From: Treponemataceae bacterium
GTDB lineage: Bacteria > Spirochaetota > Spirochaetia > Treponematales > Rectinemataceae
Reading direction: 5' to 3'
Length of the DNA: 64,000 nucleotides
Assembly (NCBI GenBank): GCA_963667725.2
Contig: CAXXHO010000006.1
Span: forward strand, 1-64,000
Both the position numbers and the translations under genes were made by a program. Of the stretch, positions 4,895 to 32,772 are shown piece after piece (position 1 is the stretch's first letter; the number at the start of each line of letters is the position of its first letter). Under the pieces are notes generated by a model. It was not told the origin of the DNA. It was given only the letters and a program-made list of their open reading frames with translations, and made no database searches.

Positions 4895-5059
4895 GGACAG
4901 GATAACGGGATGAGCAGGACTGGCAGGAAAGAGTTTTTGGTTGAGAGAAGAGAAGAAAGAGAGAAGAAGAAAGACGCGATAACAGGATGCGAAGAAAACG
5001 CTATCCTAACCAAAGTCCTTTTCCTGTAAATCCTGTCCTCTTATCCTGTCATCCTGTCC
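4895..5059 (+). repeat. GACAGGA/TCCTGTC palindromic element, copy 1
   Basis: GGACAGGAT...CAGGAAAGAGTTTTTGGTT...CCTAACCAAAG...GTAAATCCTGTC...ATCCTGTCATCCTGTCC. Confidence 0.9.
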
Positions 5060-5067
5060 TATTAGCC

Positions 5068-6033: not shown

Positions 6034-6041
6034 GCATCGGA

Positions 6042-7292: not shown

Positions 7293-7319
7293 AAGGACAG
7301 TATAGCGTAAAAACACTAT

Positions 7320-7382
7320 AAGTCCAGATATTGGCGTAATATTTGGACTTTAATGCCTTAAATACGCGTAATATCTGGACTT
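7320..7382. promoter_or_regulatory. Operator-like inverted/direct repeats upstream of the AAA+ gene
   Basis: AAGTCCAGATATT (7320-7332) is a perfect inverted repeat of AATATCTGGACTT (7370-7382) and a 12/13 match to AATATTTGGACTT (7338-7350). Confidence 0.6.
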
Positions 7383-7395
7383 CAGTAATAACGGT

Positions 7396-8127: not shown

Positions 8128-8299
8128 GAGAAGCCTCCCGGCATCGAGCGCACAACGTCATTCCCGGCGGCGCGGCTTCGACGCTGAGTCAGTATAAAAT
8201 GAGCCGGCGCGGCGGTAAAGCCAGGCGGCGGTTTTGCTAGTAGGTTGCTTTCGTCAGGTCCGTGAAGGTGACGCCGTCGAGCGGACCCGCGCCGCAATT

Positions 8300-8345
8300 A
8301 AAAAAAACGCGGCCCGGCGCCGCGCATCGCGAGGATGCGGGCCGC
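8300..8345 (-). terminator. Likely rho-independent terminator of the DEAD-box helicase gene
   Basis: Minus strand GCGGCCCG...CGGGCCGC stem followed by a run of T. Confidence 0.6.
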
Positions 8346-8373
8346 CGAACCGCGCTCTTTCGCGGGAGAGCGC

Positions 8374-9510
8374 TTACTCCCCCACCGCCGGCAGGGACAT
8401 CCGCTCGATCGGAGCGCCGATAAAGCGCTCGATCTGGCGCAGCACGGACGAATCCTCGGGAGTCACGAAGGTCAGGGCCACGCCCTTGCGCTCCATGCGC
8501 CCCGTTCGGCCGATGCGGTGCGTGTAGGCCTCGGGGGTGTCGGGAATATCGAAGTTGATCACGCGGGAAATCTTGGTGATATCGATGCCGCGGGCGGCGA
8601 TGTCGGTCGCCACCATGATCGCGGCGCGGCCGGAGCGGAAATTCGCCATGGCCTTCTCGCGCTGGCCCTGTGAAAGATTGCCCTGAAGGGACGTGGCCGC
8701 GAAGCCCGAATTGGCGAGCTGCTGCGCGAGCCGCTTGGCCCGGTGCTTCGTGCGCGTGAAGACCAGCGTCTGCCCGCCGGGACCGTTCGAACCCCAGTCG
8801 TCCACCAGCACGGAGCGCAAGGCCTCGTACTTGTCGTTCTGGCCCATCGAGCTCACATAGTGGCTCACCGTCTCAACCGGCCTGGAATTGCCGATCTCGA
8901 CGCGGACCGGATCGCGCTGGTACTGCTTGGCCAGCGTGCGGATCTCCTGGGGGAGGGTGGCGGAGAAGAGCAGGGTCTGATGCGCGCGGGGCAGGGCGGC
9001 GATGATCTTCTTGATCGAAGGCATGAAGCCCATGTCGAACATCTGGTCGGCCTCGTCCAGTACCAGCGTCTCGACCGAGCGCAGGTCGACATAACCCTGG
9101 CCCATCAGGTCCAGGAGGCGGCCCGGGCAGGCCACGATGATCTCGGGCATGCGCCCCTTGAGCGTCTTAACCTGCGACTTGACCGTAACGCCGCCGTACA
9201 TGCTCATGCTGCGGAAGCCCGTGTCCTTGCCCAGCATCTCGAAAGCCTGGTGCGTCTGCTCGGCCAGCTCCCGGGTCGGGGAAATGACGAGGGCGCGGAT
9301 CACGCAGCGCTCGCCGCCCAGAAGCCGCTGGAAGATCGGCAGCGCGAAGGCCGCTGTCTTGCCGGTGCCCGTCTGGGCCAGGCCCAGCACGTCCTTGCCC
9401 GCCAGCGTGGCGGGAATCGTCTTTTCCTGGATGGGCGTGGGGGTTTCGTAGCCAGCCGCGGCGATGGCGGCGGCGATCCGCTGGTCGAATCCGAATGAGG
9501 AGAAATTCAA
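8374..9510 (-). CDS. DEAD-box ATP-dependent RNA helicase (RhlE-like)
   Basis: Q motif PTPIQ, AQTGTGKT, PTRELA, LDEAD, SAT, ARGID, HRIGRTGR. Confidence 0.95.
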   Translation of the reverse strand: MNFSSFGFDQRIAAAIAAAGYETPTPIQEKTIPATLAGKDVLGLAQTGTGKTAAFALPIFQRLLGGERCVIRALVISPTRELAEQTHQAFEMLGKDTGFRSMSMYGGVTVKSQVKTLKGRMPEIIVACPGRLLDLMGQGYVDLRSVETLVLDEADQMFDMGFMPSIKKIIAALPRAHQTLLFSATLPQEIRTLAKQYQRDPVRVEIGNSRPVETVSHYVSSMGQNDKYEALRSVLVDDWGSNGPGGQTLVFTRTKHRAKRLAQQLANSGFAATSLQGNLSQGQREKAMANFRSGRAAIMVATDIAARGIDITKISRVINFDIPDTPEAYTHRIGRTGRMERKGVALTFVTPEDSSVLRQIERFIGAPIERMSLPAVGE

Positions 9511-9694
9511 GTGAGAATCCTAGTGGTTTGCTTGAACAGCATGAATCTGGTCAATCAAGGCTGAGGCCGCACGGTGGCGGCGGAGGGCTAGCTCAGTAAA
9601 ACGGCGTTCGAAAATGTTACAAATTCGATTCATGCAGCGCCGTTCGATGAATTTATTGTAATATAGCGCATTGGCTGCAAAGGATCAAGCCATA

Positions 9695-9853
9695 GACAGG
9701 ACGACAGGACTATCAGGACTGACGGGAAAGAGCTTTTGGTTAAGAAAGAGAAGAGAGGAGAAGGAAAGATTAAGAAGGGCCAAGAGAAGAGCCGGGCGTT
9801 CTCTAAACCAAAAACCGTTTCCGGTAAATCCTGTCCCCTCCTGTCGTCCTGTC
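9695..9853 (+). repeat. GACAGGA/TCCTGTC palindromic element, copy 2
   Basis: Perfect 15-bp terminal IR GACAGGACGACAGGA / TCCTGTCGTCCTGTC; inner TTTTGGTT/AACCAAAA; extra degenerate units to about 9870. Confidence 0.92.
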
Positions 9854-9878
9854 CTTCTGTCCTCCTGACCTTCTCAAC

Positions 9879-10670
9879 CTATTCGTTCAGCCCCTTCTTC
9901 GAGCCGTTCCCCTTGCCGGTTTCCTTATCCTTCTTTTCTTTTTCCTTGTCGGCATTGTTCGACTTTTCGGCGTTGACGTTGGAGGACTTGCCCTTGGTGA
10001 CCTTGGCCAGGGAATCGTCGATCGCCTGGGATACCGAAAGACCCTTCTTGACCGCGGACTTGATCGCGGCCACCAGGGAATTGAGCTTGCCGTTGGAGAG
10101 ATCGCAGTCGACCAGCCCCGTCGCCAAGGCGAGAACCTCAGCGTCGGAAAGGCGGTACTCGGCCTGAATGGTGGCGACCACGGAAAGGGCGGCCAGCGCC
10201 CGGTCTACGGCGGCCTGGTTCGCGCCGAGCTTGTCCGCGGCGGCCGCCAGGGCGGCCCTGAGGGCTTGCTCCGATATGCCCGCGCGGAGGAGGAGGGAGG
10301 CCTGCTCGACGGACGCCGAGGCCTTTTTCGGATCCGAGGGCAGGAGCCCGAGGCTTCTGAGCGAGGCGGCCACCGCCAGGCAGCGCTGGGTGTCCTCGCG
10401 CAAGGTGGCGGCCAGCGTCGCCGGAGCTACGCGTTTCTTGGCCGCTTCGACGAGGCGGTCGGCCAGGAGGCTGTCCGAGAGTCCGGCCTGGGAGAGGGCG
10501 GCCGCCAGCTGCTGGGCCTCAGCGGCCAGGGCCCCGTACGCGGCCTGGTTCGCCGGCGCGGCGAACCAGGCCGCCAGATTCTGGGCCGCGACGAACGAAG
10601 GGAAGGCCGCCGCCAACAACAGCGCCGCCGCGAGGCGGAAGGCCGCCCTGCTCAGCATAGTGGCGCGCAT
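9879..10670 (-). CDS. Hypothetical exported protein, Ala-rich with Lys/Glu-rich C-terminal tail
   Basis: Signal-peptide-like N-terminus (RLAAALLLAAAFPSFVAA); follows the anti-sigma gene by 2 nt. Confidence 0.7.
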   Translation of the reverse strand: MRATMLSRAAFRLAAALLLAAAFPSFVAAQNLAAWFAAPANQAAYGALAAEAQQLAAALSQAGLSDSLLADRLVEAAKKRVAPATLAATLREDTQRCLAVAASLRSLGLLPSDPKKASASVEQASLLLRAGISEQALRAALAAAADKLGANQAAVDRALAALSVVATIQAEYRLSDAEVLALATGLVDCDLSNGKLNSLVAAIKSAVKKGLSVSQAIDDSLAKVTKGKSSNVNAEKSNNADKEKEKKDKETGKGNGSKKGLNE

Positions 10671-10672
10671 GG

Positions 10673-11314
10673 CTAGAGCCTCAGGAGGCTGCCGGAGCCT
10701 CCGAAACCGTCGTCAATCTTGGCCGGCACGGCAGGGTCGGCGATCCATACTTTGCCGTCGATCACGAAATTGTACACATAGGCCTTGCCCCGCTTGAGCG
10801 GCACCTTGATCTCCCATGTGCCCGACTTGCCCACGCGGCGCAGCTGATAGCCCTCGCCCGACCAGCCGTTGAAGTCGCCCGCCAGCGAGACCGTCGATGC
10901 CTGGGGCGCCTGCAGCGCGAAACACACCGTCACCGTGCCGCTCCCCTGCCGGGCGAAATAGATGCCCAGGCTCAAGCCCAGGACGAAGATCGCCGCGGCG
11001 GCCGCCGCCAGGAGATGCGTGGATAGGGCGTGGACCCGCGCCGCGGGCGCGAAGAGCGAAAGCCTACGCCTCGGCGCCTCGAGCGAAGCCATGACCGCGT
11101 CGCCAAGACAGGGGTCGGCCCCCGGGCACTCGCTGGGCTCGAACCCCATCGCTTCGCGGCAATCGCGCTCCACAAAGGGCAGAAGAGCGCCAAAGCGCTC
11201 ATCGCAGTCGGCGCAGGAAGCGAGGTGGGCCGCCAATTCCTCCGGGCTTCGGGAGGGCGCCGCGCCGGCCTCCCATTCGTCGACCAGGGCGCGCGTATCG
11301 TTGCAGTTCATCAT
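10673..11314 (-). CDS. Zinc-finger anti-sigma factor with TM helix and C-terminal glycogen-binding (CBM48/AMPK-beta-like) domain
   Basis: HLASCADC (HxxxCxxC), TM segment, VSLAGDFNGW...YVYNFVIDGKVWIADP. Confidence 0.85.
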   Translation of the reverse strand: MMNCNDTRALVDEWEAGAAPSRSPEELAAHLASCADCDERFGALLPFVERDCREAMGFEPSECPGADPCLGDAVMASLEAPRRRLSLFAPAARVHALSTHLLAAAAAAIFVLGLSLGIYFARQGSGTVTVCFALQAPQASTVSLAGDFNGWSGEGYQLRRVGKSGTWEIKVPLKRGKAYVYNFVIDGKVWIADPAVPAKIDDGFGGSGSLLRL

Positions 11315-11892
11315 TTGTGTATACCTCGGGAACCCTCGCGGGGTTGCTTTCCTTCCAACGCGATCCGCAGCGCCTTGCGCGCGCGGAACAGCCGCGTCTT
11401 CACCGCTTCCTCGCCCAGGCCCAGGGCGCGGGCGACCTCGGCCACCGACAGCTCGCCGAAATAGTAGAGCTCAACCGGCAGGCGCTGGTCGCGAGGCAGG
11501 GCGGCCACCGCCCTCCTGAGCGCCTGCGCCCTGATGGCGTCGGCCGCCTCCTCGGCGGGATCGGCTGACGCCGCCGCCGCGGCCTCCGATCCCGCCGCTT
11601 CCACCTTGTGCCGGTCTGAGGCGAAGACGCGGAACCGCGTGCGGAGCTGATTGGCGGCGATGGCGAAAAGCCAGGCGGGGAAACTCTCGCCCCGGCGAAA
11701 CGTGCCGAGCGAACGGTAGGCGCGCACGAAGACTTCCTGCGCGGCATCGCGCGCCTCGTCCTCCGAGCGCAAGCGCGAGCCGCAGAAAGCGGCGATCCGC
11801 TGCCCGTAGCGGTCCACGAGCGAACGGAATGCGTCCCGGTCCCCCGAGAGCACCCGCGCCACCGCGTCGTCGTCAGCCTGATCGCCCTTCAT
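11311..11892 (-). CDS. ECF sigma-70 family RNA polymerase sigma factor
   Basis: GDRDAF, DAAQEVFVRAY, FPAWLFAIAAN, region 4 LSVAEVARALGLGEEAVKTRLFRAR. Confidence 0.93.
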   Translation of the reverse strand: MKGDQADDDAVARVLSGDRDAFRSLVDRYGQRIAAFCGSRLRSEDEARDAAQEVFVRAYRSLGTFRRGESFPAWLFAIAANQLRTRFRVFASDRHKVEAAGSEAAAAASADPAEEAADAIRAQALRRAVAALPRDQRLPVELYYFGELSVAEVARALGLGEEAVKTRLFRARKALRIALEGKQPREGSRGIHK

Positions 11893-11930
11893 TCCTGAAA
11901 TATATCAGGCGCCCGGCGCTTTGGCCACCC

Positions 11931-11958
11931 TGCAACCGATCGCCGGACCGCGGCGTAT
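11931..11958 (+). promoter_or_regulatory. Putative ECF-dependent promoter for the 12003 gene
   Basis: TGCAAC-N17-CGTAT, matched by AGCAAC-N17-GGTAT on the minus strand at 11348-11321. Confidence 0.55.
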
Positions 11959-12002
11959 CCCTGGGCGTAGCTTCCCGGAAAGGGGAGCAACGGAGGTACC
12001 AG

Positions 12003-12536
12003 ATGAACACAATCAAAAAATGGATCGTGACGCTCGCGGCGATCGCCCTGCTCTTCGGCGCGGCGCAGGCTGCCATGGCGCAAGCCCAGCAAACCGACGA
12101 GGATCTCAAGCAGACCCTCCAGGAGCTCGACGAGGCCGCCGAAGGCGATCCCGCGGCAGTCCTGGCGATGCTCGCCGAGGAGTTCGCCGTCGATCAGGCG
12201 GTGCTCCAGGCTTATTACGACGCGGGCGCCACGCCCGGAGAGCTCTGGCTGGCCCTCGAGATCTCGGCGAAAACCGCCATGCCCCTCGCCGACGCGGTCG
12301 CCCTCGCCGAAGGCACCGAAGGCCACGGCTGGGGTGTCCTCGCCCAGGTTCTCGGCGTGAAGCCCGGCTCCGACGAGTTCTTCGCCCTGAAAGGCAAGAT
12401 CCTGAACCGCGGCGGCAAGCTCGGCAAGGAAGTCCGCGAGGAAAGGGAAGAGCGCGAGCGCAAGGAAAAAGAAGAAAAGGAAGCCCGCGGCGGGAAGTCC
12501 GAGAACGATGGCGGCAAAGGCCAGGGCGGCAAATAA
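12003..12536 (+). CDS. Hypothetical exported protein (GHGWGVLAQVLGVKPGS motif, charged C-terminal tail)
   Basis: GGAGGT RBS before ATG 12003; signal peptide MNTIKKWIVTLAAIALLFGAAQAAMA. Confidence 0.8.
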   Translation: MNTIKKWIVTLAAIALLFGAAQAAMAQAQQTDEDLKQTLQELDEAAEGDPAAVLAMLAEEFAVDQAVLQAYYDAGATPGELWLALEISAKTAMPLADAVALAEGTEGHGWGVLAQVLGVKPGSDEFFALKGKILNRGGKLGKEVREEREERERKEKEEKEARGGKSENDGGKGQGGK

Positions 12537-12540
12537 TTAC

Positions 12541-12719
12541 GACAGGACGACAGGACTTTCCGACAGGATCACAGGACTTTCAGGACTGACAGGAAGGAGC
12601 TTTTGATTAAGAAAGAGAAGAGAAGAATAGCAAAAATAAAAAGGGCTAAGAGATGCGCCGAGCGTTCTCTTAACCCAAGGTTTTTTCCTGTGAATCCTGT
12701 CTAGTCCTGTCGTCCTGTC
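12541..12719 (+). repeat. GACAGGA/TCCTGTC palindromic element, copy 3
   Basis: Perfect 17-bp terminal IR GACAGGACGACAGGACT / AGTCCTGTCGTCCTGTC; extra left-arm units. Confidence 0.92.
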
Positions 12720-13994
12720 CTATCGCGCGTGCTTCCGGCGCTTCTCGTCCAGCATGAGGGCGTCGGCCTCGCGATAGAGGGCTTCCAGCGTGGCGTCCGG
12801 ACCGCCGCGCCGCGACACCCAGGCGAGCGAGAGGCCCAGGGCCGCGCGGCGCGGGGAATCGCGCCATGCCGCGGCGCGGCTGCGAAGTCTGGCCTCGGCG
12901 TCCGCGGCCCAGGCTGCGCCGCCCTTGGCGAGCACCACGAATTCGTCCCCGCCGTAACGGGCGATAAGGGGGCCATCGCCCAGCGCTTTTGTGAGGATGG
13001 AGGCGAACTCCCTGAGCGCCACATCGCCCTCCGGGTGGCCGAAGTCGTCGTTCACCTGTTTGAAATCATCCAAATCCATGGCAAAAAGCGAGAACTCCGT
13101 CTCTCTGGCGTCCTTGGCGGTTAGCGCCGCCTCCGCGTCGCGGTCGAAACCGGCGCGGTTGTAGAGCCCCGTCAGGGTATCACGGGTGGAACGCTCGTAG
13201 ATCTCGCGGAACATGTGCTCGTAGGGCCGGTCCAGCCCCTCCTCGATCACGATCGACCAGAAGAAGGCGAAAGAGACGAGGCTCAGCAGGTGGGCGAGCG
13301 TGTCGAACGTCCCATGGGGCTCGACCCTGAAGGCTAAAAGCAGCCCCGAGAGGCCTAAGGCGGCGACGCCTCCCATGCTCCTCGGGGACACTTTGTTCCC
13401 GACTTTGCCGGGGATGCGCTTCATCATCACCAGGCTGAACGCGGCGGCGGCGGCGATCGCGATTTCCGCCCAGCGCTTGAAAGGCGTGTAGCCAGAACCC
13501 TCGACCAGGCAGACCGGGAAGATCCCCGAGAGGATCGAGGCGCACAGGAAAGCGAATGCCGCGAAAAAGCCGATGTGCAGCTGCCAGCGCGAGGGCTTTC
13601 GCTTGAGGGTCAGGGGCACCGCGCAGATCGCCCCGATCTCCAGCGCGCGCGAGGCGATCCAGAACTGGACGGCGCGGTTGGCGGAGGCGCCCGGCAGCAG
13701 GCCAACGCCGTCGAAGTAGAAGAGGTGCAGCACTTCGAGGCTTCCCACGTAGAAGAAGGCAACGCTGATGTAGAGGAGCATGACGCTGTTCGAGAAGCGA
13801 TAGGTGCGGGTCCCGATGACGTAGATGGTGAGGGCCGCGATGAGGCACATGCCCTCCAGCGCCACATGGAACGCGGGGAATCCCCCCGCCTGGTAGGCGA
13901 GCGCGGAAATGGCGAGCAGCATGCCCAGCTTGCCGAGTTTTCGTAGGTCCACGAGGCAAGGATACAACGATTCGCGCGCGGCAACAATCATCAT
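12720..13994 (-). CDS. Diguanylate cyclase with N-terminal MASE3-like membrane domain
   Basis: Multiple TM helices, FWIASRALE, then DTLTGLYNR, DLDDFKQVNDDFGHPEGD, RYGGDEF; exact start uncertain. Confidence 0.88.
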   Translation of the reverse strand: MMIVAARESLYPCLVDLRKLGKLGMLLAISALAYQAGGFPAFHVALEGMCLIAALTIYVIGTRTYRFSNSVMLLYISVAFFYVGSLEVLHLFYFDGVGLLPGASANRAVQFWIASRALEIGAICAVPLTLKRKPSRWQLHIGFFAAFAFLCASILSGIFPVCLVEGSGYTPFKRWAEIAIAAAAAFSLVMMKRIPGKVGNKVSPRSMGGVAALGLSGLLLAFRVEPHGTFDTLAHLLSLVSFAFFWSIVIEEGLDRPYEHMFREIYERSTRDTLTGLYNRAGFDRDAEAALTAKDARETEFSLFAMDLDDFKQVNDDFGHPEGDVALREFASILTKALGDGPLIARYGGDEFVVLAKGGAAWAADAEARLRSRAAAWRDSPRRAALGLSLAWVSRRGGPDATLEALYREADALMLDEKRRKHAR

Positions 13995-14005
13995 TGCCAA
14001 AAGAG

Positions 14006-14173
14006 GACAGGATGACAGGACTCCGCGACAGGATCCCAGGAACCGCAGGACTGACAGGAAGGAGCTTTTGGTTAGGAAAGAGAAGAAAAGATAAAAAGGT
14101 TAGGAGAAGAGCCGAGCGTTCTCTTAACCCAAAACCATTTCCTGTAAATCCTGTTCTGTCCTGTCGTCCTGTC
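14006..14173 (+). repeat. GACAGGA/TCCTGTC palindromic element, copy 4
   Basis: GACAGGATGACAGGAC...GCTTTTGGTTAGGAAAGAGAA...GCGTTCTCTTAACCCAAAA...GTCCTGTCGTCCTGTC. Confidence 0.92.
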
Positions 14174-23611: not shown

Positions 23612-23636
23612 AAAATCGGGGTCAGACCCCGTTTTT
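23611..23636. repeat. Short REP-like palindrome GGGGTCAGACCCC, copy A
   Basis: AAAAATCGGGGTCAGACCCCGTTTTT; the 16-mer ATCGGGGTCAGACCCC recurs at 29139-29154. Confidence 0.7.
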
Positions 23637-23666: not shown

Positions 23667-25580
23667 ATGCCCGATGCGACGAAAACCTACGTCCTCCTCT
23701 CCAATGTCATGGTCCCGATGCGCGACGGCGTCCGCCTGGCCACCGACATCTACCTGCCCGCCGCCGGCGGGGAGAGCGGCGGCCAAGCCGCTCTCCCGGG
23801 ACCCTTCCCCGTCATCCTGGAGCGCACCCCCTACGACAAGACCACCCCCTCCCGCTCGGAGCGGAGCGTGGCCGACCCCCAGCCTCTGAGCCGCGCCCAA
23901 GTGGCGGCCTACTTCGTCGAACGCGGCTACGCCTTCGTCTACCAGGACTGCCGCGGCACCCACCACTCGGAAGGCGCCTTCACCAAATACCTCTCCGAAG
24001 GCGAGGACGGCTTCGACGCCATCGCCTGGATCGCCGCCCAGAGCTGGTGCGACGGCCATGTCGGTACCATGGGCCTCTCCTACGCGGCCCACACCCAAGT
24101 GGCGGCCGCCTGCCTGGCGCCCCCCGCCCTCAAGGCCATGTTCGTCGACTCGGGCGGCTTTCACGACGCCTACCAGGGCGGCATAAGGCAGGGCGGGGCC
24201 TTCGAGCTCAAGCAGGCCACCTGGGCCATGCGCCAGGCCATCCAGAGCCCCGAGGCCGCTGCCGACCCCCTCGTCAAGGGCGCGCTGGAATCCGAATTCG
24301 CCCACATCCGCGCCTGGTTCCGCGCCCTCCCCTGGCGCGCCGGCCAGTCCCCCCTGCGCTGGCTCCCCGACTTCGAGGACTATTTATTGGAGCAGTGGGG
24401 CCATGGCCGGTACGACGAATTCTGGCGCCGGCTCGGCATCTGCGCCGCCGCCTATATGGACGGCTTCGCGGCCATCCCCATGGTCCACATGTCCAGCTGG
24501 TACGACCCCTACCCCCGCACTGCCACCGAGAACTACCAAGACCTGAAACGACGAGGCAAAGGCCCCCTGGCCCTCATCCTCGGCCCCTGGACCCACGGCG
24601 ACCGCTGCCTCACCTATGCGGGCGACGTCGACTTCGGCCCCCGCGCCCCCCTGGAGGGGAACGTGGCCCCCGACTTCCTCCAGCTCCGCCTCGCCTGGTT
24701 CGACCGCTGGCTCAAAGCCCCCGCCCCCGGCGACCAAGCCCAAGCCCAGCCCGAGACCGACCCCCCCGTGCGCTATTTCCGCATGGGCGGCGGCTCCGGC
24801 CGCAAAAACGCCCAGGGCCGGCTCGAGCACGGCGGCGAGTGGCGAAGCGCCCCCGACTGGCCCCTGCCCGACGCCGAGCGCCGAGCCCTCCACCTCCTTC
24901 CCGGCGGGCTCCTGGGCGACACGCCGCCACAAGAGGAAACCTCGATCGCCTACCGCTACGACCCCTGCGACCCCGTCCCCTCCATCGGCGGCTCCATCAC
25001 CTCCGGCGAACCCATCATGCGCGGCGGCGCCTTCGACCAGGTCGAGGACGAGCGCTTCTTCGGCTGCGCCCACCCCGGCCTCCCCCTCGCGGCGCGCCCC
25101 GACATCCTCGTCTTCCAAACCGAGCCCCTGGCGAGCGCCCTCGAGGTGACCGGCCCCATCGAGGCCGAACTCTGGATCTCCTCCGACTGCCCGGACACCG
25201 ACTTCACCATCAAGCTGATCGACGTCTACCCGCCCTCGGCCGACTACCCCCGCGGCTTCGCCATGAACCTGACGGACGGCATCCTGCGCGCCCGCTACCG
25301 CGACTCCTGGGAATCGCCGGAACCCCTGGAGCCCGGCAGGATCTACAGGGTCACGGTGCGCGCCTTCCCCACCAGCAACCTCTTCGCCGCCGGCCACCGC
25401 ATCCGGCTGGACGTCTCCAGCTCCAACTTCCCCCACTTCGACGCCAACCCCAACTCAGGCGAGCCCGAGGGCTCCTCCCGCACCTGCCGCGCGGCGACGA
25501 ACGCCCTGCATCTGGGGCCGGAGCACCCCTCCCGCCTATTCCTTCCTTGTAGGACAGGATCACAGGAACCCCAGGACTGA
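23667..25580 (+). CDS. CocE/NonD family hydrolase (peptidase S15)
   Basis: MRDGVRLATDIY, ERTPY, QDCRG, nucleophile GLSY, GPWTHG, RIRLDVSSSNFPHFDANPN; last residues and stop lie inside repeat copy 5. Confidence 0.93.
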   Translation: MPDATKTYVLLSNVMVPMRDGVRLATDIYLPAAGGESGGQAALPGPFPVILERTPYDKTTPSRSERSVADPQPLSRAQVAAYFVERGYAFVYQDCRGTHHSEGAFTKYLSEGEDGFDAIAWIAAQSWCDGHVGTMGLSYAAHTQVAAACLAPPALKAMFVDSGGFHDAYQGGIRQGGAFELKQATWAMRQAIQSPEAAADPLVKGALESEFAHIRAWFRALPWRAGQSPLRWLPDFEDYLLEQWGHGRYDEFWRRLGICAAAYMDGFAAIPMVHMSSWYDPYPRTATENYQDLKRRGKGPLALILGPWTHGDRCLTYAGDVDFGPRAPLEGNVAPDFLQLRLAWFDRWLKAPAPGDQAQAQPETDPPVRYFRMGGGSGRKNAQGRLEHGGEWRSAPDWPLPDAERRALHLLPGGLLGDTPPQEETSIAYRYDPCDPVPSIGGSITSGEPIMRGGAFDQVEDERFFGCAHPGLPLAARPDILVFQTEPLASALEVTGPIEAELWISSDCPDTDFTIKLIDVYPPSADYPRGFAMNLTDGILRARYRDSWESPEPLEPGRIYRVTVRAFPTSNLFAAGHRIRLDVSSSNFPHFDANPNSGEPEGSSRTCRAATNALHLGPEHPSRLFLPCRTGSQEPQD

Positions 25581-25712
25581 CAGGAGAGAGCTTTTAGTTA
25601 GGAAAGAGAAGAGAAGAAAGAGAAAATTAGAAAGGTTAGGAGAAGAGCCGCGCGTTCTCCTAACCCAAAAACATTCTCTACGTAAATCCTGTCCCATCCC
25701 GTAATCCTGTCC
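25552..25712 (+). repeat. GACAGGA/TCCTGTC palindromic element, copy 5
   Basis: GGACAGGATCACAGGA...GCTTTTAGTTAGGAAAGAGAA...GCGTTCTCCTAACCCAAAAA...ATCCTGTCC. Confidence 0.92.
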
Positions 25713-25729
25713 AATATCCTATCAATTGA

Positions 25730-25773
25730 GCAACTAAAATATAGTTGCATCATTGCCATGGAGGTAGTACACT
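25730..25773 (+). promoter_or_regulatory. sigma70 promoter with overlapping operator for hicAB
   Basis: TTGCAT(25745)-N17-TACACT(25768); palindrome GCAACTA-N5-TAGTTGC (25730-25748) overlaps the -35. Confidence 0.65.
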
Positions 25774-25778
25774 TACCT

Positions 25779-26036
25779 ATGAGCCGAGATGAAAAGCTGC
25801 TAAAACGTTTTCTGGCTCGCCCGAAAGATTTCACCTACGACGAGCTGCGAAACCTGCTTTCGAGGTTTGGATATGAGGCAGACCGCCAAGGCAAGACATC
25901 CGGATCACGAGTGGGGTTTATCAATGCAAAGACAAAACACATCATACGGCTGCATAAACCTCATCCGGGAAATGAATTGAAGATGTACCAGATCGACCTG
26001 ATACGGGAAGCGCTGGAAACCAGGGGGCTGTTATGA
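25779..26036 (+). CDS. hicA: HicA family toxin
   Basis: FTYDELRNLLSRFGY, GKTSGSRV, IRLHKPHPGNELKMYQI; coupled to HicB. Confidence 0.9.
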   Translation: MSRDEKLLKRFLARPKDFTYDELRNLLSRFGYEADRQGKTSGSRVGFINAKTKHIIRLHKPHPGNELKMYQIDLIREALETRGLL

Positions 26037-26518
26037 AAGACGTTCTTACCTATAAAGACTATATGGGCTCGGTACATTACTGCGCCGAAGACGAAATCTT
26101 CTATGGCAAATTGGAAGGGATAGAAGACCTGGTGACCTTTGAGGCGAAAAACGTCGACGCCCTCAAATCCGCCTTTAAAGAATCCGTTGAAGACTATCTT
26201 GAAACCTGCAAACGAGAGGACAAGGAAACGGAAAAATCCTATAAGGGAAGCTTCAACGTGAGAATTTCACCCGAACTTCATAAAAGCGCAAAGCGAGCGG
26301 CGGTTGAGCAGGGAATCTCGCTTAACCAGCTCATGCAGAAAGCCCTTGAGAATGAACTCTTAAAGACAAAGTTGAAGAAATTTCGCATCAAGCCCGAGGG
26401 TTCGACTCCCTCCTCGGGCAAATGGCAGGGCGACAAGCCTTCCCGACAGGATGACAGGACCCCCATGACTCACAGGAAAAAGCCTTTGGTTAACAAAGAG
26501 AAGATCGGCGATAAGTAA
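26033..26518 (+). CDS. hicB: HicB family antitoxin with non-homologous C-terminal read-through extension
   Basis: LTYKDYMGSV, AFKESVEDYL, KSYKGSFNVRISPELH, GISLNQ; about 50 extra residues run into repeat copy 6. Confidence 0.9.
   Translation: MKDVLTYKDYMGSVHYCAEDEIFYGKLEGIEDLVTFEAKNVDALKSAFKESVEDYLETCKREDKETEKSYKGSFNVRISPELHKSAKRAAVEQGISLNQLMQKALENELLKTKLKKFRIKPEGSTPSSGKWQGDKPSRQDDRTPMTHRKKPLVNKEKIGDK
26392..26420 (+). other. tRNA 3'-end remnant (T-arm plus acceptor 3' strand, Leu-like), possible att scar
   Basis: GAGGG-TTCGACT-CCCTC followed by CTCGGGC-A; preceded by GCCC giving GCCCGAG. Confidence 0.5.
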
Positions 26519-26607
26519 CCGAGCCAGTCTCCGAGAAGCGCCGCGCGTTCTCCTTCCTAACCCAAAACTCTTTCCTGTTAATCCTGTCCCAATCCTGTCA
26601 TCCTGTC
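26445..26607 (+). repeat. GACAGGA/TCCTGTC palindromic element, copy 6
   Basis: Perfect 15-bp terminal IR GACAGGATGACAGGA / TCCTGTCATCCTGTC. Confidence 0.92.
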
Positions 26608-26610
26608 CAA

Positions 26611-26668
26611 CACAAAACTTGTACGACTTTTGTGCAACTAATCACAAAAGAGGCTACACTTTTGTGAT
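26611..26668. promoter_or_regulatory. Tandem operator-like palindromes upstream of the AAA+ gene
   Basis: CACAAAA-N10-TTTTGTG (26611-26634) and ATCACAAAAG-N8-CTTTTGTGAT (26641-26668). Confidence 0.6.
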
Positions 26669-26689
26669 GACCTGTAATACACTTGTAGT

Positions 26690-28033
26690 ATGGAAAGAAA
26701 AGCCCTCTCAGCCCTGCTGGCGTGGCAACGTGATCCGCGCAGAAAGCCTCTCGTCCTGAACGGTGCCCGCCAAGTCGGCAAAACATGGCTGCTCAAAGAA
26801 TTCGGCAAAAGCGCCTACCAAAACGTCGCCTACATAAATTTCGAGTCCAATGAGCGTATGACAACGCTCTTTTCCTCCAACGTGGACCCTGCGCGCCTCC
26901 TCATGGGCTTGCGCGTGGAGACGGGCGTGCCCATCGAGCCCGAAAAGACGCTCATCGTATTCGATGAAGTCCAAGCGAACCCGAAAGCCCTCACCTCGCT
27001 CAAGTATTTTTATGAGAATGCTCCCCAGTACCACCTTATCGCGGCAGGATCGCTCTTGGGGATCTCGCTGCATGCGGACACTTCCTTCCCCGTCGGCAAA
27101 GTCGACTTCTTGAATCTCTATCCGCTCTCCTTCCTAGAATTCTTGAAAGCCATCGGCGAGCCTGAGCTGGCGGACCTTGTCGCATCAGGCGACTGGTCCA
27201 TGATCGATGCGTTCAGGGAAAAGCTGACCGAATCCCTGCGCTCTTACTATTGCGTCGGCGGCATGCCAGAGAGCGTGGTCACCTTCGTGGAGACCAAGGA
27301 TCTCGACAAGGTCCGCGTCTTCCAGAAAGCGCTGCTTGAAGCCTATGAACGGGATTTTTCAAAATACGCGAAACCAGACACGGTCCCTCGGATCCGGGCG
27401 GTCTGGAATTCCCTGCCGGCCCAATTGGCCCGGGAACAGAAAAAATTCGTGTACGGCCTCGTCCGCGAGGGCGCCAGGGCGAGAGAATATGAATCCGCGA
27501 TCGAATGGCTCTGCGACGCTGGCCTGTCGCGTAAAATCTTCAGAGTCTCGAAGCCCGGGCTCCCGCTCAAGGCATATCAGGAGCTCAACGCGTTCAAGCT
27601 CTACATGCTCGATATCGGGCTGCTGGCGGCGCATGCGGGCTTGTCGATGCAGGCGGTATTGCGGGGGAACGCCCTTTTCGAAGAATTCAAGGGTGCTTTG
27701 ACCGAACAATATGTCGCGCAGGAATTGTGTCTCATGGAAGAAATGGATGCCTCATACTGGTCGAGCGACACCTCCCGGGCCGAGGTCGATTTTTTGCTTC
27801 AGGCCCAAGGTTCTGTTTACCCCCTCGAAGTAAAAGCGGCGGAAAACCTGCAAGCCAAGAGCCTCCGCGTCTATTACGACAAGTTTTCGCCCCCGTGCGC
27901 CTTTCGAACCTCGCTGTCGCCCTACCGCGAACAAAGCTGGCTGACGAACATCCCCCTCTACGCGCTCTCCCTGCTCGATAAGGCGACAGGATCACAGGAC
28001 CCCCAGGACCCACAGGAAAGCGCCTTTGGTTAA
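26690..28033 (+). CDS. AAA+ ATPase, AAA_14/DUF4143 family
   Basis: GARQVGKT, FDEVQ, AAGSLLG, FPVGKV, GGMPE, GALTEQYVAQEL, EVDF...PLEVKA; stop inside repeat copy 7. Confidence 0.92.
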   Translation: MERKALSALLAWQRDPRRKPLVLNGARQVGKTWLLKEFGKSAYQNVAYINFESNERMTTLFSSNVDPARLLMGLRVETGVPIEPEKTLIVFDEVQANPKALTSLKYFYENAPQYHLIAAGSLLGISLHADTSFPVGKVDFLNLYPLSFLEFLKAIGEPELADLVASGDWSMIDAFREKLTESLRSYYCVGGMPESVVTFVETKDLDKVRVFQKALLEAYERDFSKYAKPDTVPRIRAVWNSLPAQLAREQKKFVYGLVREGARAREYESAIEWLCDAGLSRKIFRVSKPGLPLKAYQELNAFKLYMLDIGLLAAHAGLSMQAVLRGNALFEEFKGALTEQYVAQELCLMEEMDASYWSSDTSRAEVDFLLQAQGSVYPLEVKAAENLQAKSLRVYYDKFSPPCAFRTSLSPYREQSWLTNIPLYALSLLDKATGSQDPQDPQESAFG

Positions 28034-28153
28034 GAAAGAAAGAGAAGAAAAGAAATAGGTAACCGCGCCAAGCTTCGAGAAGCGCACAGCGTCCTCTTTC
28101 CTAACCCAAAAACATTCTCTTAGTAAATCCTGTCCCATTCCTGTCATCCTGTC
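27985..28153 (+). repeat. GACAGGA/TCCTGTC palindromic element, copy 7
   Basis: GACAGGATCACAGGA...CTTTGGTTAAGAAAG...CTTTCCTAACCCAAAAA...TCCTGTCATCCTGTC. Confidence 0.92.
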
Positions 28154-28155
28154 CT

Positions 28156-29073
28156 CTAATACAAAAACCCAAACAGCCATAAAGGAATCTTCTTCCCAAA
28201 CCCATACTCCAGGTTGTCCGCCGCAATATACCCTTCGGGTATATCCTTGATCTGCCGCCGCGTTTTATTCTTGCCGCCCACCTCAATTGTCGTGAGCTCG
28301 TCCACCAGAAAGTCGCCGGCTTCGGTGTAGGCCACCGAATGATCCTTAGCGAGCTGATTCAGGAGAAAAGTTTCCCGCAGGGCTCCTGTGTCAGCCTGCT
28401 CGCCTCGGAACAGGTAGGCCAGGTTGGTATTGTCCAGGTAGAGCTTGTCGGGCTTTTGCAGGGCGCCAATTCCGTGTGTGTTTCTAAAGAGAGAGTGGGT
28501 CAGCTTGGACTCGCCGAGAAATTGGAGATAGAAGAGCAAGGTTTGCCTATGGATGAGCATCCGCTCGCTCAGCTTTGAAATATTGGGGATAAAGGGCGAG
28601 GTTTCGGCGATAATTCCCAACAGTTGCTTCAGTTTGGGCACATAAGAGATGTCGATATGGCGAAGAAGCGGCAACTCGAGCTCCAGAATCATCATAACGG
28701 TCTCTTCGAGGCGCTGATAATAGGTTTCCACGCCCTCTAAATAGTAGGGGTAATACCCAGTCTGCAGATAGGTGGAAAAGTATTTAAAGGGCTTTATCCG
28801 GGCCAGGATATCAACCGCTATGCTTTCGTGTCGTTCCAGGAGCTCTGGTAATGGAATTGGCTCAAAAGCCGATCCAGTCTGAAAATTCAAGAATTCCCGG
28901 AAAGAGAGTCCCTGCAATTCGTACATCAGCGCCCGGCGGCTCAGATCCGCCCGGGCGTCGAGGATTTCCAGAAGTGAAGAGCCTGTAAAGGCGATGTGGA
29001 GGTCTGGGTAGTCGTCGTAGAGGCTTTTTATCGTCCGCGCCCAATCGGGGTATTTATGCACTTCGTCGAGGAA
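28156..29073 (-). pseudogene. 5'-truncated AAA+ (AAA_14) ATPase lacking Walker A
   Basis: Frame begins FLDEVHKYPDW (Walker B) directly after an in-frame TAG; retains TGSS, DLSRR, GYYPY, KPDKLYLDN, GDFLVD..IEVGG. Confidence 0.8.
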
Positions 29074-29134
29074 CTAGGACTAAATTGTACAGTCTGGTAA
29101 CTAAATATTAGTGAATATGTGTGGTTATAGTGTT

Positions 29135-29160
29135 AAACATCGGGGTCAGACCCCAATTTT
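29135..29160. repeat. Short REP-like palindrome GGGGTCAGACCCC, copy B
   Basis: AAACATCGGGGTCAGACCCCAATTTT. Confidence 0.7.
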
Positions 29161-29169
29161 TAATTTTTA

Positions 29170-29274
29170 GACACGATACCAGGACTTCCAGGATCGACAA
29201 GACAAAGCCTGCTTTTTCTTTCTTAACCCAAAAACTCTTTTCTGTTAATCCTGTCCCCTTCCTGTCATCCTGTC
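29170..29274 (+). repeat. GACAGGA/TCCTGTC element, copy 8 (internally deleted)
   Basis: Degenerate left arm GACACGATACCAGGACTTCCAGGA, no purine core, intact right arm TCTTAACCCAAAAA...AATCCTGTC...TCCTGTCATCCTGTC. Confidence 0.85.
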
Positions 29275-29804
29275 TTAACCCCGACATAAAAAACCACCCC
29301 ATCGGCCAGCCCTCCCATCGCGGAACTTCCATCCCCAAAGCTCAGCTTGCCGAAGAAGCCGCCTCCAATCCGGAATCGCGCGCGGGGGCCGATGCCCAAC
29401 CAGAAGGAGAGGTCCGGAAAGAAGATCGGAGCGACGGTGACTGAAAAACCAGAATCGGCGCAGCCCGCGAGGACGCCGCCTCCAAGGCGGCCTTCGAGGA
29501 TCAGGGCGCCCATGCGCCGTTCCAGCGTAATGTTCGGCCAGGCGTAGGCGCCGAAGCTGGTTCCGACCAGGTAGCAGAGGGATCTGGCGCCCGGGTTCAA
29601 GCTCAGCGGGCCGAGGGGGAAGGCGTAGCCGAGTTCTACGTAGGCCATGGGGAGAGGGATGACGGTGTTTGCCGTGAGTTCGCCGTTCGAGGTGTAGGCG
29701 GCCGCCAGGGGCGCGCCGATGCCGAGGGAAAGGCGAGGGGTACCGTAGGCGGGGAACAGCGCCAGGATCAACAAAATGGCGCCCGTGATCGTCGCGCGTT
29801 TCAT
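29265..29804 (-). CDS. Hypothetical exported or membrane protein (Gly/aromatic-rich)
   Basis: GGAGG RBS, signal peptide MKRATITGAILLILALFPAYG; stop inside repeat copy 8. Confidence 0.7.
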   Translation of the reverse strand: MKRATITGAILLILALFPAYGTPRLSLGIGAPLAAAYTSNGELTANTVIPLPMAYVELGYAFPLGPLSLNPGARSLCYLVGTSFGAYAWPNITLERRMGALILEGRLGGGVLAGCADSGFSVTVAPIFFPDLSFWLGIGPRARFRIGGGFFGKLSFGDGSSAMGGLADGVVFYVGVKTG

Positions 29805-29883
29805 GCGAGCCTCCAGGGGTGAATCGCTTCATCCATGTCCTAAGTATAGTGCGCGCGGCGCGGCTTTTGGTTTTTGTAAAATA

Positions 29884-30044
29884 GGACAGGACGACAGAAC
29901 CGTCAGGACTGACAGGAAAGAGCTTTTGGTTAAGAAAGAGAAGAGAAGAAACGCGAATATGAAAAGTGCCACTAGAAGCGCCGCGCGTTCTCCTAACCCA
30001 AAAACATTCTCCCCGTAAATCCTGTCACGTCCCGTTATCCTGTC
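29884..30044 (+). repeat. GACAGGA/TCCTGTC palindromic element, copy 9
   Basis: GGACAGGACGACAG...GAGCTTTTGGTTAAGAAAGAGAA...GCGTTCTCCTAACCCAAAAA...TATCCTGTC. Confidence 0.92.
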
Positions 30045-30119
30045 GCAGTTAATCCTATCTAAACAAATATTGTATATAGAAATACAATGCACTATCCTTA
30101 ACAACAAAAGAGGTATGCC

Positions 30120-30959
30120 ATGAGAAAAGTGACTCTCTCGCTTCTTGTTGGATTATGCCTGCTTTTCATTTCAGGATGCGAACTGCTTGATCTTTATCTA
30201 TCGACGACCACTACCGTCACGACCATTACTAATCCGGTGATTGTTCAAATGGTGAACGTTGAAGGCGGCACCTTCCAGATGGGTGACGATTTTCTTTATA
30301 CTTCGCTTCCCATCCATACGGTTACCGTAAGCGGCTTTCAAATCGGCAAGCTTGAAATAACGCAAGGCCAGTATCGCGAAGTGATGGGGACCAATCCGTC
30401 ATACTTCATCGATGGGCCCTATCCCGACAGCCGGCCGGTCGACCAAGTGAAGTGGTACGAGGCGGTGGCGTTCTGCAATCAGCTCTCCCTGCTTCACGGA
30501 TATGAATGCTGCTACATGATTGATGGAACGAACGTTGCGCTCGACGCAAGTAAAAACGGCTATCGGCTCCCCAGCGAAGCTGAATGGGAATTCGCGGCGA
30601 AAGGCGGAACATTAGGCTATGGGTATACCTATTCCGGATCGAATAATCCTGATTTCGTCGGTTGGTACAATGCGAATTCCGGGCAAGTCTCGCATGTCGT
30701 GGGAGGGAAGGCGGCCAACGAGCTTGGCATTTATGATATGAGCGGCAACCTCCGTGAAAGGTGTTTCGATTTTTGGCTCGACAGCTATCCGGCGGAGGCG
30801 CAGATCGATCCTATGGGCCCTTCGACAGGGGAATATCGTGTGCGTAGGGGAGGCGCCTGGGACTTCAGTGAGACAATGCTGCGATGCACGGCGAGGAATT
30901 ACGGAACACCCGAAAACCGGAGGAATTTCACTGGTTTCCGCGTGGTGAGGAGACCCTGA
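30120..30959 (+). CDS. Lipoprotein with FGE-sulfatase/SUMF1 (C-type lectin-like) domain
   Basis: Lipobox-like FISGC; VEGGTFQMG, YRLPSEAEWEFAAKGG, NELGIYDMSGN, RRGGAW, GFRVVR. Confidence 0.9.
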   Translation: MRKVTLSLLVGLCLLFISGCELLDLYLSTTTTVTTITNPVIVQMVNVEGGTFQMGDDFLYTSLPIHTVTVSGFQIGKLEITQGQYREVMGTNPSYFIDGPYPDSRPVDQVKWYEAVAFCNQLSLLHGYECCYMIDGTNVALDASKNGYRLPSEAEWEFAAKGGTLGYGYTYSGSNNPDFVGWYNANSGQVSHVVGGKAANELGIYDMSGNLRERCFDFWLDSYPAEAQIDPMGPSTGEYRVRRGGAWDFSETMLRCTARNYGTPENRRNFTGFRVVRRP

Positions 30960-30968
30960 GCAAAGCGT

Positions 30969-31280
30969 TCAATATCGATTATAAAAGGTGATGACCCCGT
31001 TTCCTGAGCCAACCGGATAAACGACCAAGGCATAATTGTATCGATAGCTTATTGGATTGTTTGAGGTCGTGACTTCGTGGGAAGTGCCCGATTGAAGGAT
31101 GAAACTCTCCCATGATTGTTCGTTTGGGGAGATGGTGATGTTGTAGTAGGAATAATTGATAAACGTGAATGTATAGGTGGGAATGGCTGAATCGCAACTG
31201 AAAACGATCAGGAGCGTGATCAGCGCTACGATGGCGATTGTGATTCTTTTCTTGACTGGAGATCCTTGCGCGATCTTCAT
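30969..31280 (-). CDS. Small hypothetical lipoprotein
   Basis: GGAGG RBS; KKR + hydrophobic stretch + VFSC lipobox-like motif. Confidence 0.65.
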   Translation of the reverse strand: MKIAQGSPVKKRITIAIVALITLLIVFSCDSAIPTYTFTFINYSYYNITISPNEQSWESFILQSGTSHEVTTSNNPISYRYNYALVVYPVGSGNGVITFYNRY

Positions 31281-31513
31281 GCATCGCCTCCTGGATGGGA
31301 TGATTGATGCGGGGCGATTGCAAAGATTTCAGACGAGCAGGACGGTCAAGTTGTTTTATAATCTGTTCTTTACAGATGTACTACGACTTCAGTATGGGTT
31401 TTTTTCTGTTATTGTCAAGAAATAAAGAATGATTTGCCTATCTTGCCCATACACCGAAGCACTTCCTGTCCAAGAGAGCAAAGCGCACTTGAAGCTGTTT
31501 TCATGGTAAGGTA

Positions 31514-31678
31514 ACGACAGGATCCCAGGACCATCAGGACCAACAGGAAACAGCCTTTGGTTAAGAAAGAGAATCGCGGCTATAGGTAAACGAGCGAGGC
31601 TTAGAGAGGCGCCAAGCGTTCTCCTAACCAAAAAACATTCTCTCAGTAAATCCTGTCCCCTTCCTGTCATCCTGTCGT
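31514..31678 (+). repeat. GACAGGA/TCCTGTC palindromic element, copy 10
   Basis: ACGACAGGAT / ATCCTGTCGT termini; CTTTGGTTAAGAAAGAGAA...TTCTCCTAACCAAAA. Confidence 0.92.
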
Positions 31679-32125
31679 AGTTAATCCCATCCAAAGCCCC
31701 ATCTTTTTAACAACCTCCACCTTCAAAGGCTTTATCTCATCCCTACTCAGGTTTATCTGAATTTTTATCCCTAAGGGCTCCGCCGGATCCTCTCTGATCC
31801 CCGCCTCGGCCAGGAGGCCGGGGACTTTGACCCAGCCCTGGTGGACCGAAAGCTTGCGCGCGAAGGCGATGCGCGGGTCCAGGCCCATGAACCGGAGGCG
31901 GCGCTTGGCCGCGAAGAGCCAGCGCTCGGGCTTGTAGTCTTTCTTGTCCAGAAGGGCGAACTCGAGGCCGGCCTCGCCCTCGCTTATGAGGGCAACGGAC
32001 AGGAAGGCCTCGGCTTCATGGAAGGAGCGCAGCAGGGAAGCTTGCAGGCAACCGCGCAAGACGGCGCGCTTGGCCTCGGGATCAAGGGCGGCGGCCGCCA
32101 GCTCCAGCATCTCTTCTTTCATCAT
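31667..32125 (-). pseudogene. Degenerate/truncated AbiEii-like nucleotidyltransferase toxin
   Basis: ATGA-coupled to the AbiEi-like gene; LRGCLQASLLRSFHEAEAF resembles an AbiEii N-terminus, but the GGT...RFSEDLD motif is absent; stop inside repeat copy 10. Confidence 0.6.
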
Positions 32126-32772
32126 AAGGCCGCCCCCTTCCGCGCCGCGTAGCGGCGGAAGGCCCGCACCGCTTTGGCGAGCCGCGGCCGGCCGGCGCGA
32201 TCCGCCGCGGCCTTCAGCAGTTCCAGGCGTATGGGCGCGGGGTTGAGGCCGGCGGCGTCCATGCGGGGCTCGTCCCAGTCCCCGCCCTCGATGAGCCACC
32301 AGTCCAGGAGCGCCTTTTCTGGTCTTGCGATCCGCGCCGCGCCGCCCCCTATCGCCACCGTCTCCGCGCCGAAAAGCAGGTCCCGGGGCAGGGCGGCGTA
32401 CTCGTAGCGTCCCAGGGCGTTCTCGAAAACCTTGGCTGGCCTGGCGGTTGCCGAGGTGTAGCGGGGCGGCAGCCCCGGCGCCTGGGCGGCCCCACCCGGC
32501 AGCGCGCCGCACCTCCCCAAGGCCCAGGCGCCCGTCAAATACGAGGGCTCGTACAGCCCCCCCGCCAGCTCGGCCCCGTCCAGGGGATAGCGCCGCCAGG
32601 GCTCGGCCAGGACGAAGAATCCCCGCCGCAGCTCGACGAGCTTGCCCGCCTGCCTCCAGCGGTAGAGTTCCGTATGCACGCAAGCCGCCGCCTCGCCCGA
32701 GACAAGGTGAACCATTTCAAAGTCGAACCAGGGCTTGTCCCTAAAGGTTCGGACGATATCCTCGAATTTCAT
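32122..32772 (-). CDS. AbiEi-like type IV TA antitoxin / transcriptional regulator
   Basis: LYRWRQAGKLVELRRGFF, LYEPSYL..WAL, IARPEKALLDW; TTGAAT-N17-TACAGT promoter 7 nt before ATG. Confidence 0.8.
   Translation of the reverse strand: MKFEDIVRTFRDKPWFDFEMVHLVSGEAAACVHTELYRWRQAGKLVELRRGFFVLAEPWRRYPLDGAELAGGLYEPSYLTGAWALGRCGALPGGAAQAPGLPPRYTSATARPAKVFENALGRYEYAALPRDLLFGAETVAIGGGAARIARPEKALLDWWLIEGGDWDEPRMDAAGLNPAPIRLELLKAAADRAGRPRLAKAVRAFRRYAARKGAAL

Follow-up and report, generated by a model that had tools for sequence, protein, structure and literature searches.

Bacterial miniature inverted-repeat transposable elements (MITEs) and composite transposons carry terminal inverted repeats, occur as gene-less derivatives of a gene-carrying unit and truncate adjacent genes. 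In integrons and clusters of attC sites lacking an integrase (CALINs), single-gene modules stand between co-oriented hairpins, the cargo includes toxin-antitoxin and defence genes, and the order changes between strains, as described in the accessible part of Cury 2016 (PMC4889954). In REPIN-RAYT systems, repetitive extragenic palindromic (REP) sequences form non-autonomous extragenic hairpins, and the repeat family is paired with one nuclease gene flanked by the same repeats, the REP-associated tyrosine transposase (RAYT) (Bertels and Rainey 2011, PMC3116915; Di Nocera 2013, PMC3733652; excerpts of both). The arrays of neisserial intergenic mosaic elements (NIMEs) and dRS3 repeats are dynamic and mosaic, and the excerpted text of Bentley 2007 (PMC1797815) describes a proposal that these repeats of variable loci promote exchange of neighbouring genes through homologous recombination or by a specific recombinase. 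Here we describe an array that resembles each of these in part. It lies in the first 64,000 nucleotides (nt) of contig CAXXHO010000006.1 (C6) of the Treponemataceae assembly GCA_963667725.2 (G000), the whole stretch being called the window below. Its repeat, named the GACAGG element after its ends, alternates there with accessory and defence genes. With a probability of roughly 55%, we read the element as a gene-less form of the repeat arms that surround genes for GxxExxY proteins, present at junctions near a polysaccharide locus, where recombination at the repeats makes related arrays gain, lose, duplicate and reorder the genes that they enclose.

Ten copies of the element were identified by a repeat search and by a profile built from 23 copies. 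Four are spread over 4896-14173, while six form the tight array at 25553-31676, where the search confirmed the six copies reported by an earlier reading that was made from the sequence only.

4896..5058, + strand: element copy 1, at the M42/M19 peptidase junction, which is empty in genomes G001 and G002
9695..9853, + strand: element copy 2, at the junction of the DEAD helicase and the ECF module, a variable hot spot
12562..12719, + strand: element copy 3, between ECF module and diguanylate cyclase, with an extra left arm from 12541; missing on C2 along with the preceding gene
14027..14173, + strand: element copy 4, between diguanylate cyclase and kinase, with an extra left arm from 14006; on C2 this junction is empty
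25553..25711, + strand: element copy 5, containing the CocE stop codon; its counterpart on C4 is element-GxxExxY-element
26445..26607, + strand: element copy 6
27985..28153, + strand: element copy 7
29170..29274, + strand: element copy 8, a short form of 105 bp without the A-rich middle
29885..30044, + strand: element copy 9
31516..31676, + strand: element copy 10

The copies measure 105-169 bp (typically about 160 bp) and start with GACAGGAY and close with RTCCTGTC, which form terminal inverted repeats. Their arms consist of CAGGA units spaced about 9 nt apart, and a purine-rich middle sets the polarity, which by alignment is the same in all ten window copies regardless of the direction of the flanking genes; the copies on contig C4 are likewise all co-oriented. 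Each window copy can fold into a hairpin as single-stranded DNA (z-scores from -2.0 to -5.8, with -5.77 for copy 6), and the Rfam database gave no match in the window at its gathering thresholds. A chance origin of the two-arm pattern was rejected, there being 10 matches in the window and none in 30 shuffles. Within the 4.2 Mb of the assembly, well-conserved copies are confined to three clusters (C6 4.9-31.7 kb, C4 65-101 kb and C5 677-786 kb), and within the window 6 of the 8 junctions in 25.5-31.7 kb are occupied as compared to 4 copies in the preceding 21 kb.

The element shares with MITEs and composite transposons its terminal inverted repeats, a gene-less form and truncated adjacent genes, but no DDE transposase is linked to it, no target duplication was found and its clustering is strongly local and directional. 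In contrast to REPIN-RAYT as presented in the excerpts cited above, the associated enzyme is predicted to be a PD-(D/E)XK nuclease and not an HUH tyrosine transposase, the arms are built from 9-nt periodic CAGGA units without a GTAG or CGTC tag, and the copies are local and co-oriented and not genome-wide. Compared to what is reported for the neisserial arrays, single hairpins of about 160 bp alternate here with whole genes, it is the order of modules that changes, and the cargo is of the defence type and not made up of surface antigens. Differences from the integrons and CALINs, as far as these are covered by the accessible part of the paper cited above, are the lack of attC ends, of an adjacent intI and of a fixed crossover base; in addition, the sites are not carried along with the gene, and the cargo lies in both orientations and also occurs without sites. 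A literature search, which had subscription journals and bioRxiv supplements outside its coverage, yielded no account of the element or of arrays like these.

The assembly is a mixture of at least three related organisms, with C4/C6 and C1/C7 as homologous pairs of about 90% identity. Contigs C6, C4 and C2 and a part of C5 represent the same region in homologous versions, the aligned core being 92-99% identical between C6 and C4 and roughly 70-94% for C2 and C5. The mixture thus supplies the comparison between relatives that the sequence-only reading had called for. An assembly artefact was rejected as an explanation: the order of the window from CocE to the FGE gene recurs in four overlapping contigs of a run from another study (X5), and the C4 array is backed by a metagenome contig (L056) with 98.9% identity over 7,970 nt. 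Three further joints, 29163->29883 (X9), 31601->26550 (X7) and 25567->31511 (X10), fit element-to-element joins; they have low depth and come from single contigs, and as they may originate from repeats or relatives they were not used as evidence.

The tight array shows gain and loss of modules at its elements, as well as duplication and a changed order. The unit called AAAa (26608-27984), which contains an AAA_14+DUF4143 gene, is 97% identical between C6 and C4, in a match that begins 1 nt beyond one element and reaches the following one with 0 nt to spare. It is flanked in the window by hicB on one side and a truncated AAA gene on the other, on C4 by AAA396 and AAA455, and on C5 by AAA455 and a fragment of an AAA gene, so that the order AAAa-AAA455 on C4 is reversed to AAA455-AAAa on C5. 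Genome G020 resembles C5 in having the end of an AAA455-like gene upstream of AAAa, and REP remnants take the place of the element there. On C4, a two-gene unit bounded by elements is duplicated. In metagenome contig L059, GxxExxY, an element and X are joined directly, and three units of C4 are skipped. Further afield, G063 has three tandem element-bounded units of 1857 bp which are 86-94% identical without gaps, and arrays built in the same way are present in G073 and G080, in both cases with a GxxExxY gene inside, and in G005, where no GxxExxY match was found and 2 of the 7 full copies are inverted. Whole-segment differences between relatives with ends at the elements, which had been anticipated for a shuffling array, are thus found among C6, C4, C5 and L059.

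The left-hand blocks behave differently. The ECF module, the diguanylate cyclase and the kinase/ABC/CocE block had also been taken for element-bounded modules, and this cannot be upheld because relatives have the same gene order without the elements. The M42 and M19 genes are only about 20 nt apart in G001 and G002; C2 has the diguanylate cyclase followed by the kinase without copy 4; and CocE on C5 ends normally without an element, while on C6, C4 and L056 its last codons are replaced by one. The DEAD/ECF junction exists in four states: with an element (C6), with half an element and an AAA gene (C4), with nothing (C5) and with a 38-kb insert (C2). These blocks represent a later colonisation of junctions by the element.

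The element is likely to be the gene-less form of inverted ACAGGAT-type arms that surround genes for GxxExxY proteins, as judged from sequence comparison. The only two GxxExxY genes of the assembly each sit between two element copies, in the C4 and C5 arrays, and the gene on C4 occupies the place where the window has copy 5 alone. For GxxExxY relatives, 80 genome loci were collected, 77 of them with enough flanking sequence, and CAGGAY arms were found on both sides of the gene in 35 of these 77 loci, compared to 1 of 149 control window pairs taken further out. The form left arm-gene-right arm is common among these loci, units of this kind being found in L022, L098 and L100. In the same three contigs, gene-less palindromes occur at junctions neighbouring GxxExxY units and also between conserved sugar-biosynthesis genes; in L100, the same arms stand at successive junctions of a conserved sugar-biosynthesis operon. 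Among the 69 family genomes, 21 have the arm pattern, while the reversed control gave none. The pattern is present in 7 of the 8 family genomes with a GxxExxY match of at least 54% identity, compared to 13 of the 60 others. Other arm motifs accompany more distant GxxExxY genes, and because other clades of the gene carry other motifs, a role as a CsrA-binding RNA, to which the repeated CAGGA might point, was set aside.

The GxxExxY protein matches PF13366. Its PD-(D/E)XK nuclease motif is intact, with D66, E76, K78, Q90 and Y94 invariant in all 64 aligned sequences. The structural model (pLDDT 91.5) has as its best fold match SSO0001 (Z 10.9, rmsd 3.0, 99 aligned), which we take to be a Cas4 protein; lambda-exonuclease-like and Hjc folds rank lower, and a shared fold shows no function. 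A sequence search of the PDB gave no significant match. In one contig (L094), titled as a metagenome-assembled genome of Shapirobacteria, there is a GxxExxY protein 95% identical to that of C5 together with the same array units, which reflects either misbinning or recent transfer.

The reading that fits these data best is that of a junction-colonising repeat which acts secondarily as a recombination accordion, and not of an integrase-driven cassette system. It starts from the hairpin with GACAGGAY...RTCCTGTC ends, which is linked to one clade of GxxExxY genes. Copies arrive at existing junctions, often at the 3' ends of genes, as the empty sites in relatives indicate, and remain local and co-oriented; the probable agent of this step is the predicted Cas4/RecB-like GxxExxY nuclease. 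AAA+/DUF4143 and toxin-antitoxin genes, on established background as well as in our data, gather at the polysaccharide-linked hot spot with or without the element. Crossovers at neighbouring co-oriented copies would then remove or copy single-gene modules, thereby changing their order, and would shorten the ends of genes; the rearrangements as such are those described above. The most likely route is host recombination, possibly begun by cuts at the hairpin; a recA gene was found on C3, a contig of a related organism in the mixture.

Several observations weigh against this reading. The 54% cut-off used for the family genomes was set after the data had been seen, kin genomes are not independent, and 13 genomes have arms without a close GxxExxY match. 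Neither the window nor its contig carries a GxxExxY gene, in an assembly that covers the genome of the window strain only in part, and the nuclease is an active agent by prediction. The insertion of an AAA gene at 6042-7316 and the AAA truncation at 29073 involve no element. Because the window copies are only 71-84% identical, with exact runs of 16 nt in the median and of at least 25 nt in 3 of 28 pairs, the current copies are a poor substrate for RecA; between the copies on C4, exact runs of at least 25 nt occur in 12 of 55 pairs. Neither a target-site duplication nor a highly identical pair of empty and filled sites was found in the relatives compared, so insertion is deduced from relatives at 75-82% identity. 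There is a weak bias for T and A 2-3 nt outside the element ends, where TA occurs in 34 of 142 arms. Finally, the strict co-orientation and the high density at accessory junctions fit a dedicated system equally well.

Such a system would be a cassette platform, an integron analogue without a tyrosine recombinase, in which single genes bounded by elements are cut out or inserted by the GxxExxY nuclease, acting at the element termini. We consider this unlikely. The wider proposal that the Cas4/RecB-like nuclease and the hairpin arms form a second, integrase-free cassette system of spirochaetes is equally tentative; in it, cuts at the termini would allow single defence genes to be excised, amplified and put back, so that arrays grow beside polysaccharide loci. 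Besides the co-orientation of all ten window copies and of those on C4, a dedicated system would account for the occurrence of mostly one gene per interval, for the recurrence, in three or more genomes or contigs, of 10-11-unit arrays that include a GxxExxY gene, and for the reversed order of AAAa and AAA455. It is retained because identity falls exactly at the element ends, beside cargo which is 97-98% identical, as would be expected from terminus cutting. However, the junctions at homologous genes shift by 0-19 nt between lineages, the arms are not carried with the cargo, and among AAAa homologues in 12 other genomes one has elements on both sides, three on one side, one has REPs only, and none was detected for seven. 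For these reasons a dedicated system is not established, and the proposal of a gene-capture or shuffling platform holds for shuffling at elements in the tight array but not for dedicated, integron-like capture. The GxxExxY gene, moreover, does not keep to a leader position: it comes first on C4 and third on C5, and in G073 and G080 it is internal. Truncation of genes at the elements is frequent, and the predicted fold is that of a nuclease without a ligase or strand-transfer domain. As to the arms themselves, those beside the 97% identical AAAa unit are 89% (right) and 81% (left) identical, the latter being no better than random pairs, as 70% of all 88 C6 x C4 pairs reach 81%. Element copies are mosaics, and a model in which each cassette carries its own site was rejected since arms do not travel with the cargo. 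That copy 5 arose as a clean chimera from the two C4 copies on either side of GxxExxY is suggestive only, since its right third is less like the C4 copy (0.84) than like other copies (0.91, 0.89).

At the opposite extreme, the repeats might do nothing but fill the junctions of a hot spot, with genes moving by other means and boundaries coinciding since junctions are short. The empty junctions in relatives, the four states of the DEAD/ECF junction on four contigs, and the finding of the same cargo bare or between REP repeats would all follow from passive colonisation, and we nevertheless regard it as rather improbable. It does not explain why the 97% identical unit on C6 and C4 has elements flush with it on both sides (0-1 nt) in two contexts, why L059 skips three units at an element, or why tandem duplications on C4 and in G063 are element-bounded.

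A second repeat family in the region is of the REP type, with a GGGGTCAGACCCC core and AT-rich arms. The window has cores at 23618-23630 and at 29142-29154 (no strand assigned), the latter directly 5' of copy 8, and REPs are often found directly 5' of a GACAGG element. On C4 and C5, the family flanks a RAYT-like Y1 gene and punctuates a neighbouring array, of AAA+, PIN and AbiE genes, within a polysaccharide cluster (G000:C4 22.8-29.6 kb and G000:C5 693-706 kb). The same modules are bounded by REPs on C5 and by elements in G005. That this REP/RAYT system of the HUH type moves the modules, with the GACAGG element riding along, is very unlikely: the Y1 genes and the position of REP cores beside several copies speak for it, but a REP adjoins just 1 of the 10 window copies, no HUH (Y1) transposase gene flanked by the element was found, those on C4 and C5 being flanked by REPs, and the element follows GxxExxY across phyla.

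It is hardly conceivable that the elements are atypical attC sites of a CALIN used in trans by the lineage's integron integrase, for although the assembly has three intI genes above the TIGR02249 cut-off and toxin-antitoxin and defence cargo is typical of cassettes, window 4-33 kb lacks any RYYYAAC...GTTRRRY site, a profile made from 86 attC sites of the assembly itself has no match on C6, C4, C2 and C5 660-800 kb, the cargo lies in both orientations and the junctions are imprecise. The array is not an integron, and an attC reading of its elements was rejected on the missing attC ends, as reported before, and on the profile. The claim that intI is absent applies to the window, and no intI adjoins the array, but not to the assembly, as C1, C7 and C5:551 kb have an intI each with its own canonical attC array. 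These are large chromosomal integrons (C7:37069-65 kb, C1:0.4-35 kb and C5:397-552 kb); attC matches also occur on C3.

It is largely open by what means defence islands acquire, lose and rearrange single genes when neither integrons nor known transposons are involved. Here, a repeat family linked to an uncharacterised PF13366 nuclease marks breakpoints, and mixed-strain data already show the rearrangements. A nuclease of 130 aa and a hairpin of 160 bp make a small, tractable system, and may offer a route by which PDC-S01 genes build tandem arrays.

The genes between the elements of the tight array are as follows.

25758..26518, + strand: hicA-hicB; hicB runs into copy 6, and C4 retains hicB without hicA
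26690..28033, + strand: AAA_14+DUF4143 gene, PADLOC PDC-S01 (E 1e-181)
28156..29073, - strand: 5'-truncated AAA_14 gene, without its first 99 residues of 404; matches a relative over residues 100-404
29265..29804, - strand: predicted exported protein with signal peptide, 179 aa, no Pfam match; stop within copy 8
30120..30959, + strand: lipoprotein with FGE-sulfatase domain
30969..31280, - strand: small predicted lipoprotein, 103 aa, no Pfam match
31667..32125, - strand: AbiEii-like gene, C-terminally truncated (152 of about 266 aa); the frame ends in copy 10
32122..32772, - strand: AbiEi antitoxin gene

The sequence-only reading was right about the differing base composition of this cargo (GC 47-63% over the six segments) and about its mixed orientation, with genes on both strands between co-oriented elements. 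Its gene list holds for HicA/HicB, the AAA+/DUF4143 protein, the truncated AAA+ protein, the exported protein, the FGE lipoprotein, the second lipoprotein and AbiEi, while its AbiEii is a 152-aa fragment of a 266-aa protein, for which neither Pfam nor PADLOC gave a match. Bracketing by the elements is not clean, contrary to what had been thought, because the stop codons of five open reading frames (CocE, hicB, AAA+, the exported protein and the AbiEii-like gene) fall within an element. Nor are promoters of the modules' own established, because sigma-70-like matches do not exceed chance (6 vs 4.8 +/- 2.2); a scan for terminators was likewise at chance level. Decay of toxin genes is seen at the elements: on C6, C4 and C5, AbiEii-like genes are cut at residue 152-158 where they meet an element, and hicA is missing on C4. 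The break in the truncated AAA_14 gene at 29073 lies about 100 nt away from the element and not at it. For the exported-protein and FGE modules, no close homologue was found among 68 family genomes.

The C4 and C5 arrays each contain 5-7 distinct AAA+ paralogues in tandem, of the DUF4143 type by sequence, several with palindromic operator-like sequences upstream. Another AAA+/DUF4143 (PDC-S01) gene, at window 6042-7316, is free of elements; on C5 the homologous gene forms an array unit bounded by elements, and the corresponding place on C4 is occupied by another gene. PDC-S01 reportedly ranks fourth in frequency among the defence candidates of prokaryotes, while the anti-phage activity of most of these candidates (PDCs) is unvalidated according to the accessible part of the same source (PMC12988326). 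Both PF13366 and DUF4143 are listed as being of unknown function in the available part of PMC3424549.

The tight arrays each end in an AbiE pair that is followed by polysaccharide genes. In the window, the region 33093-64000 has a low GC content (40-55%), begins with TPP, epimerase, WbqC, AMP-binding and hexapeptide genes and looks like an acquired polysaccharide locus. GC skew, checked for a leading-strand bias, gave a noisy signal. Elsewhere, internal direct repeats with a period of about 110 bp occur at G000:C4:104.7-107.1 kb, and C6 has a 500-bp duplication outside the window, at 68.4-70.0 kb of the contig.

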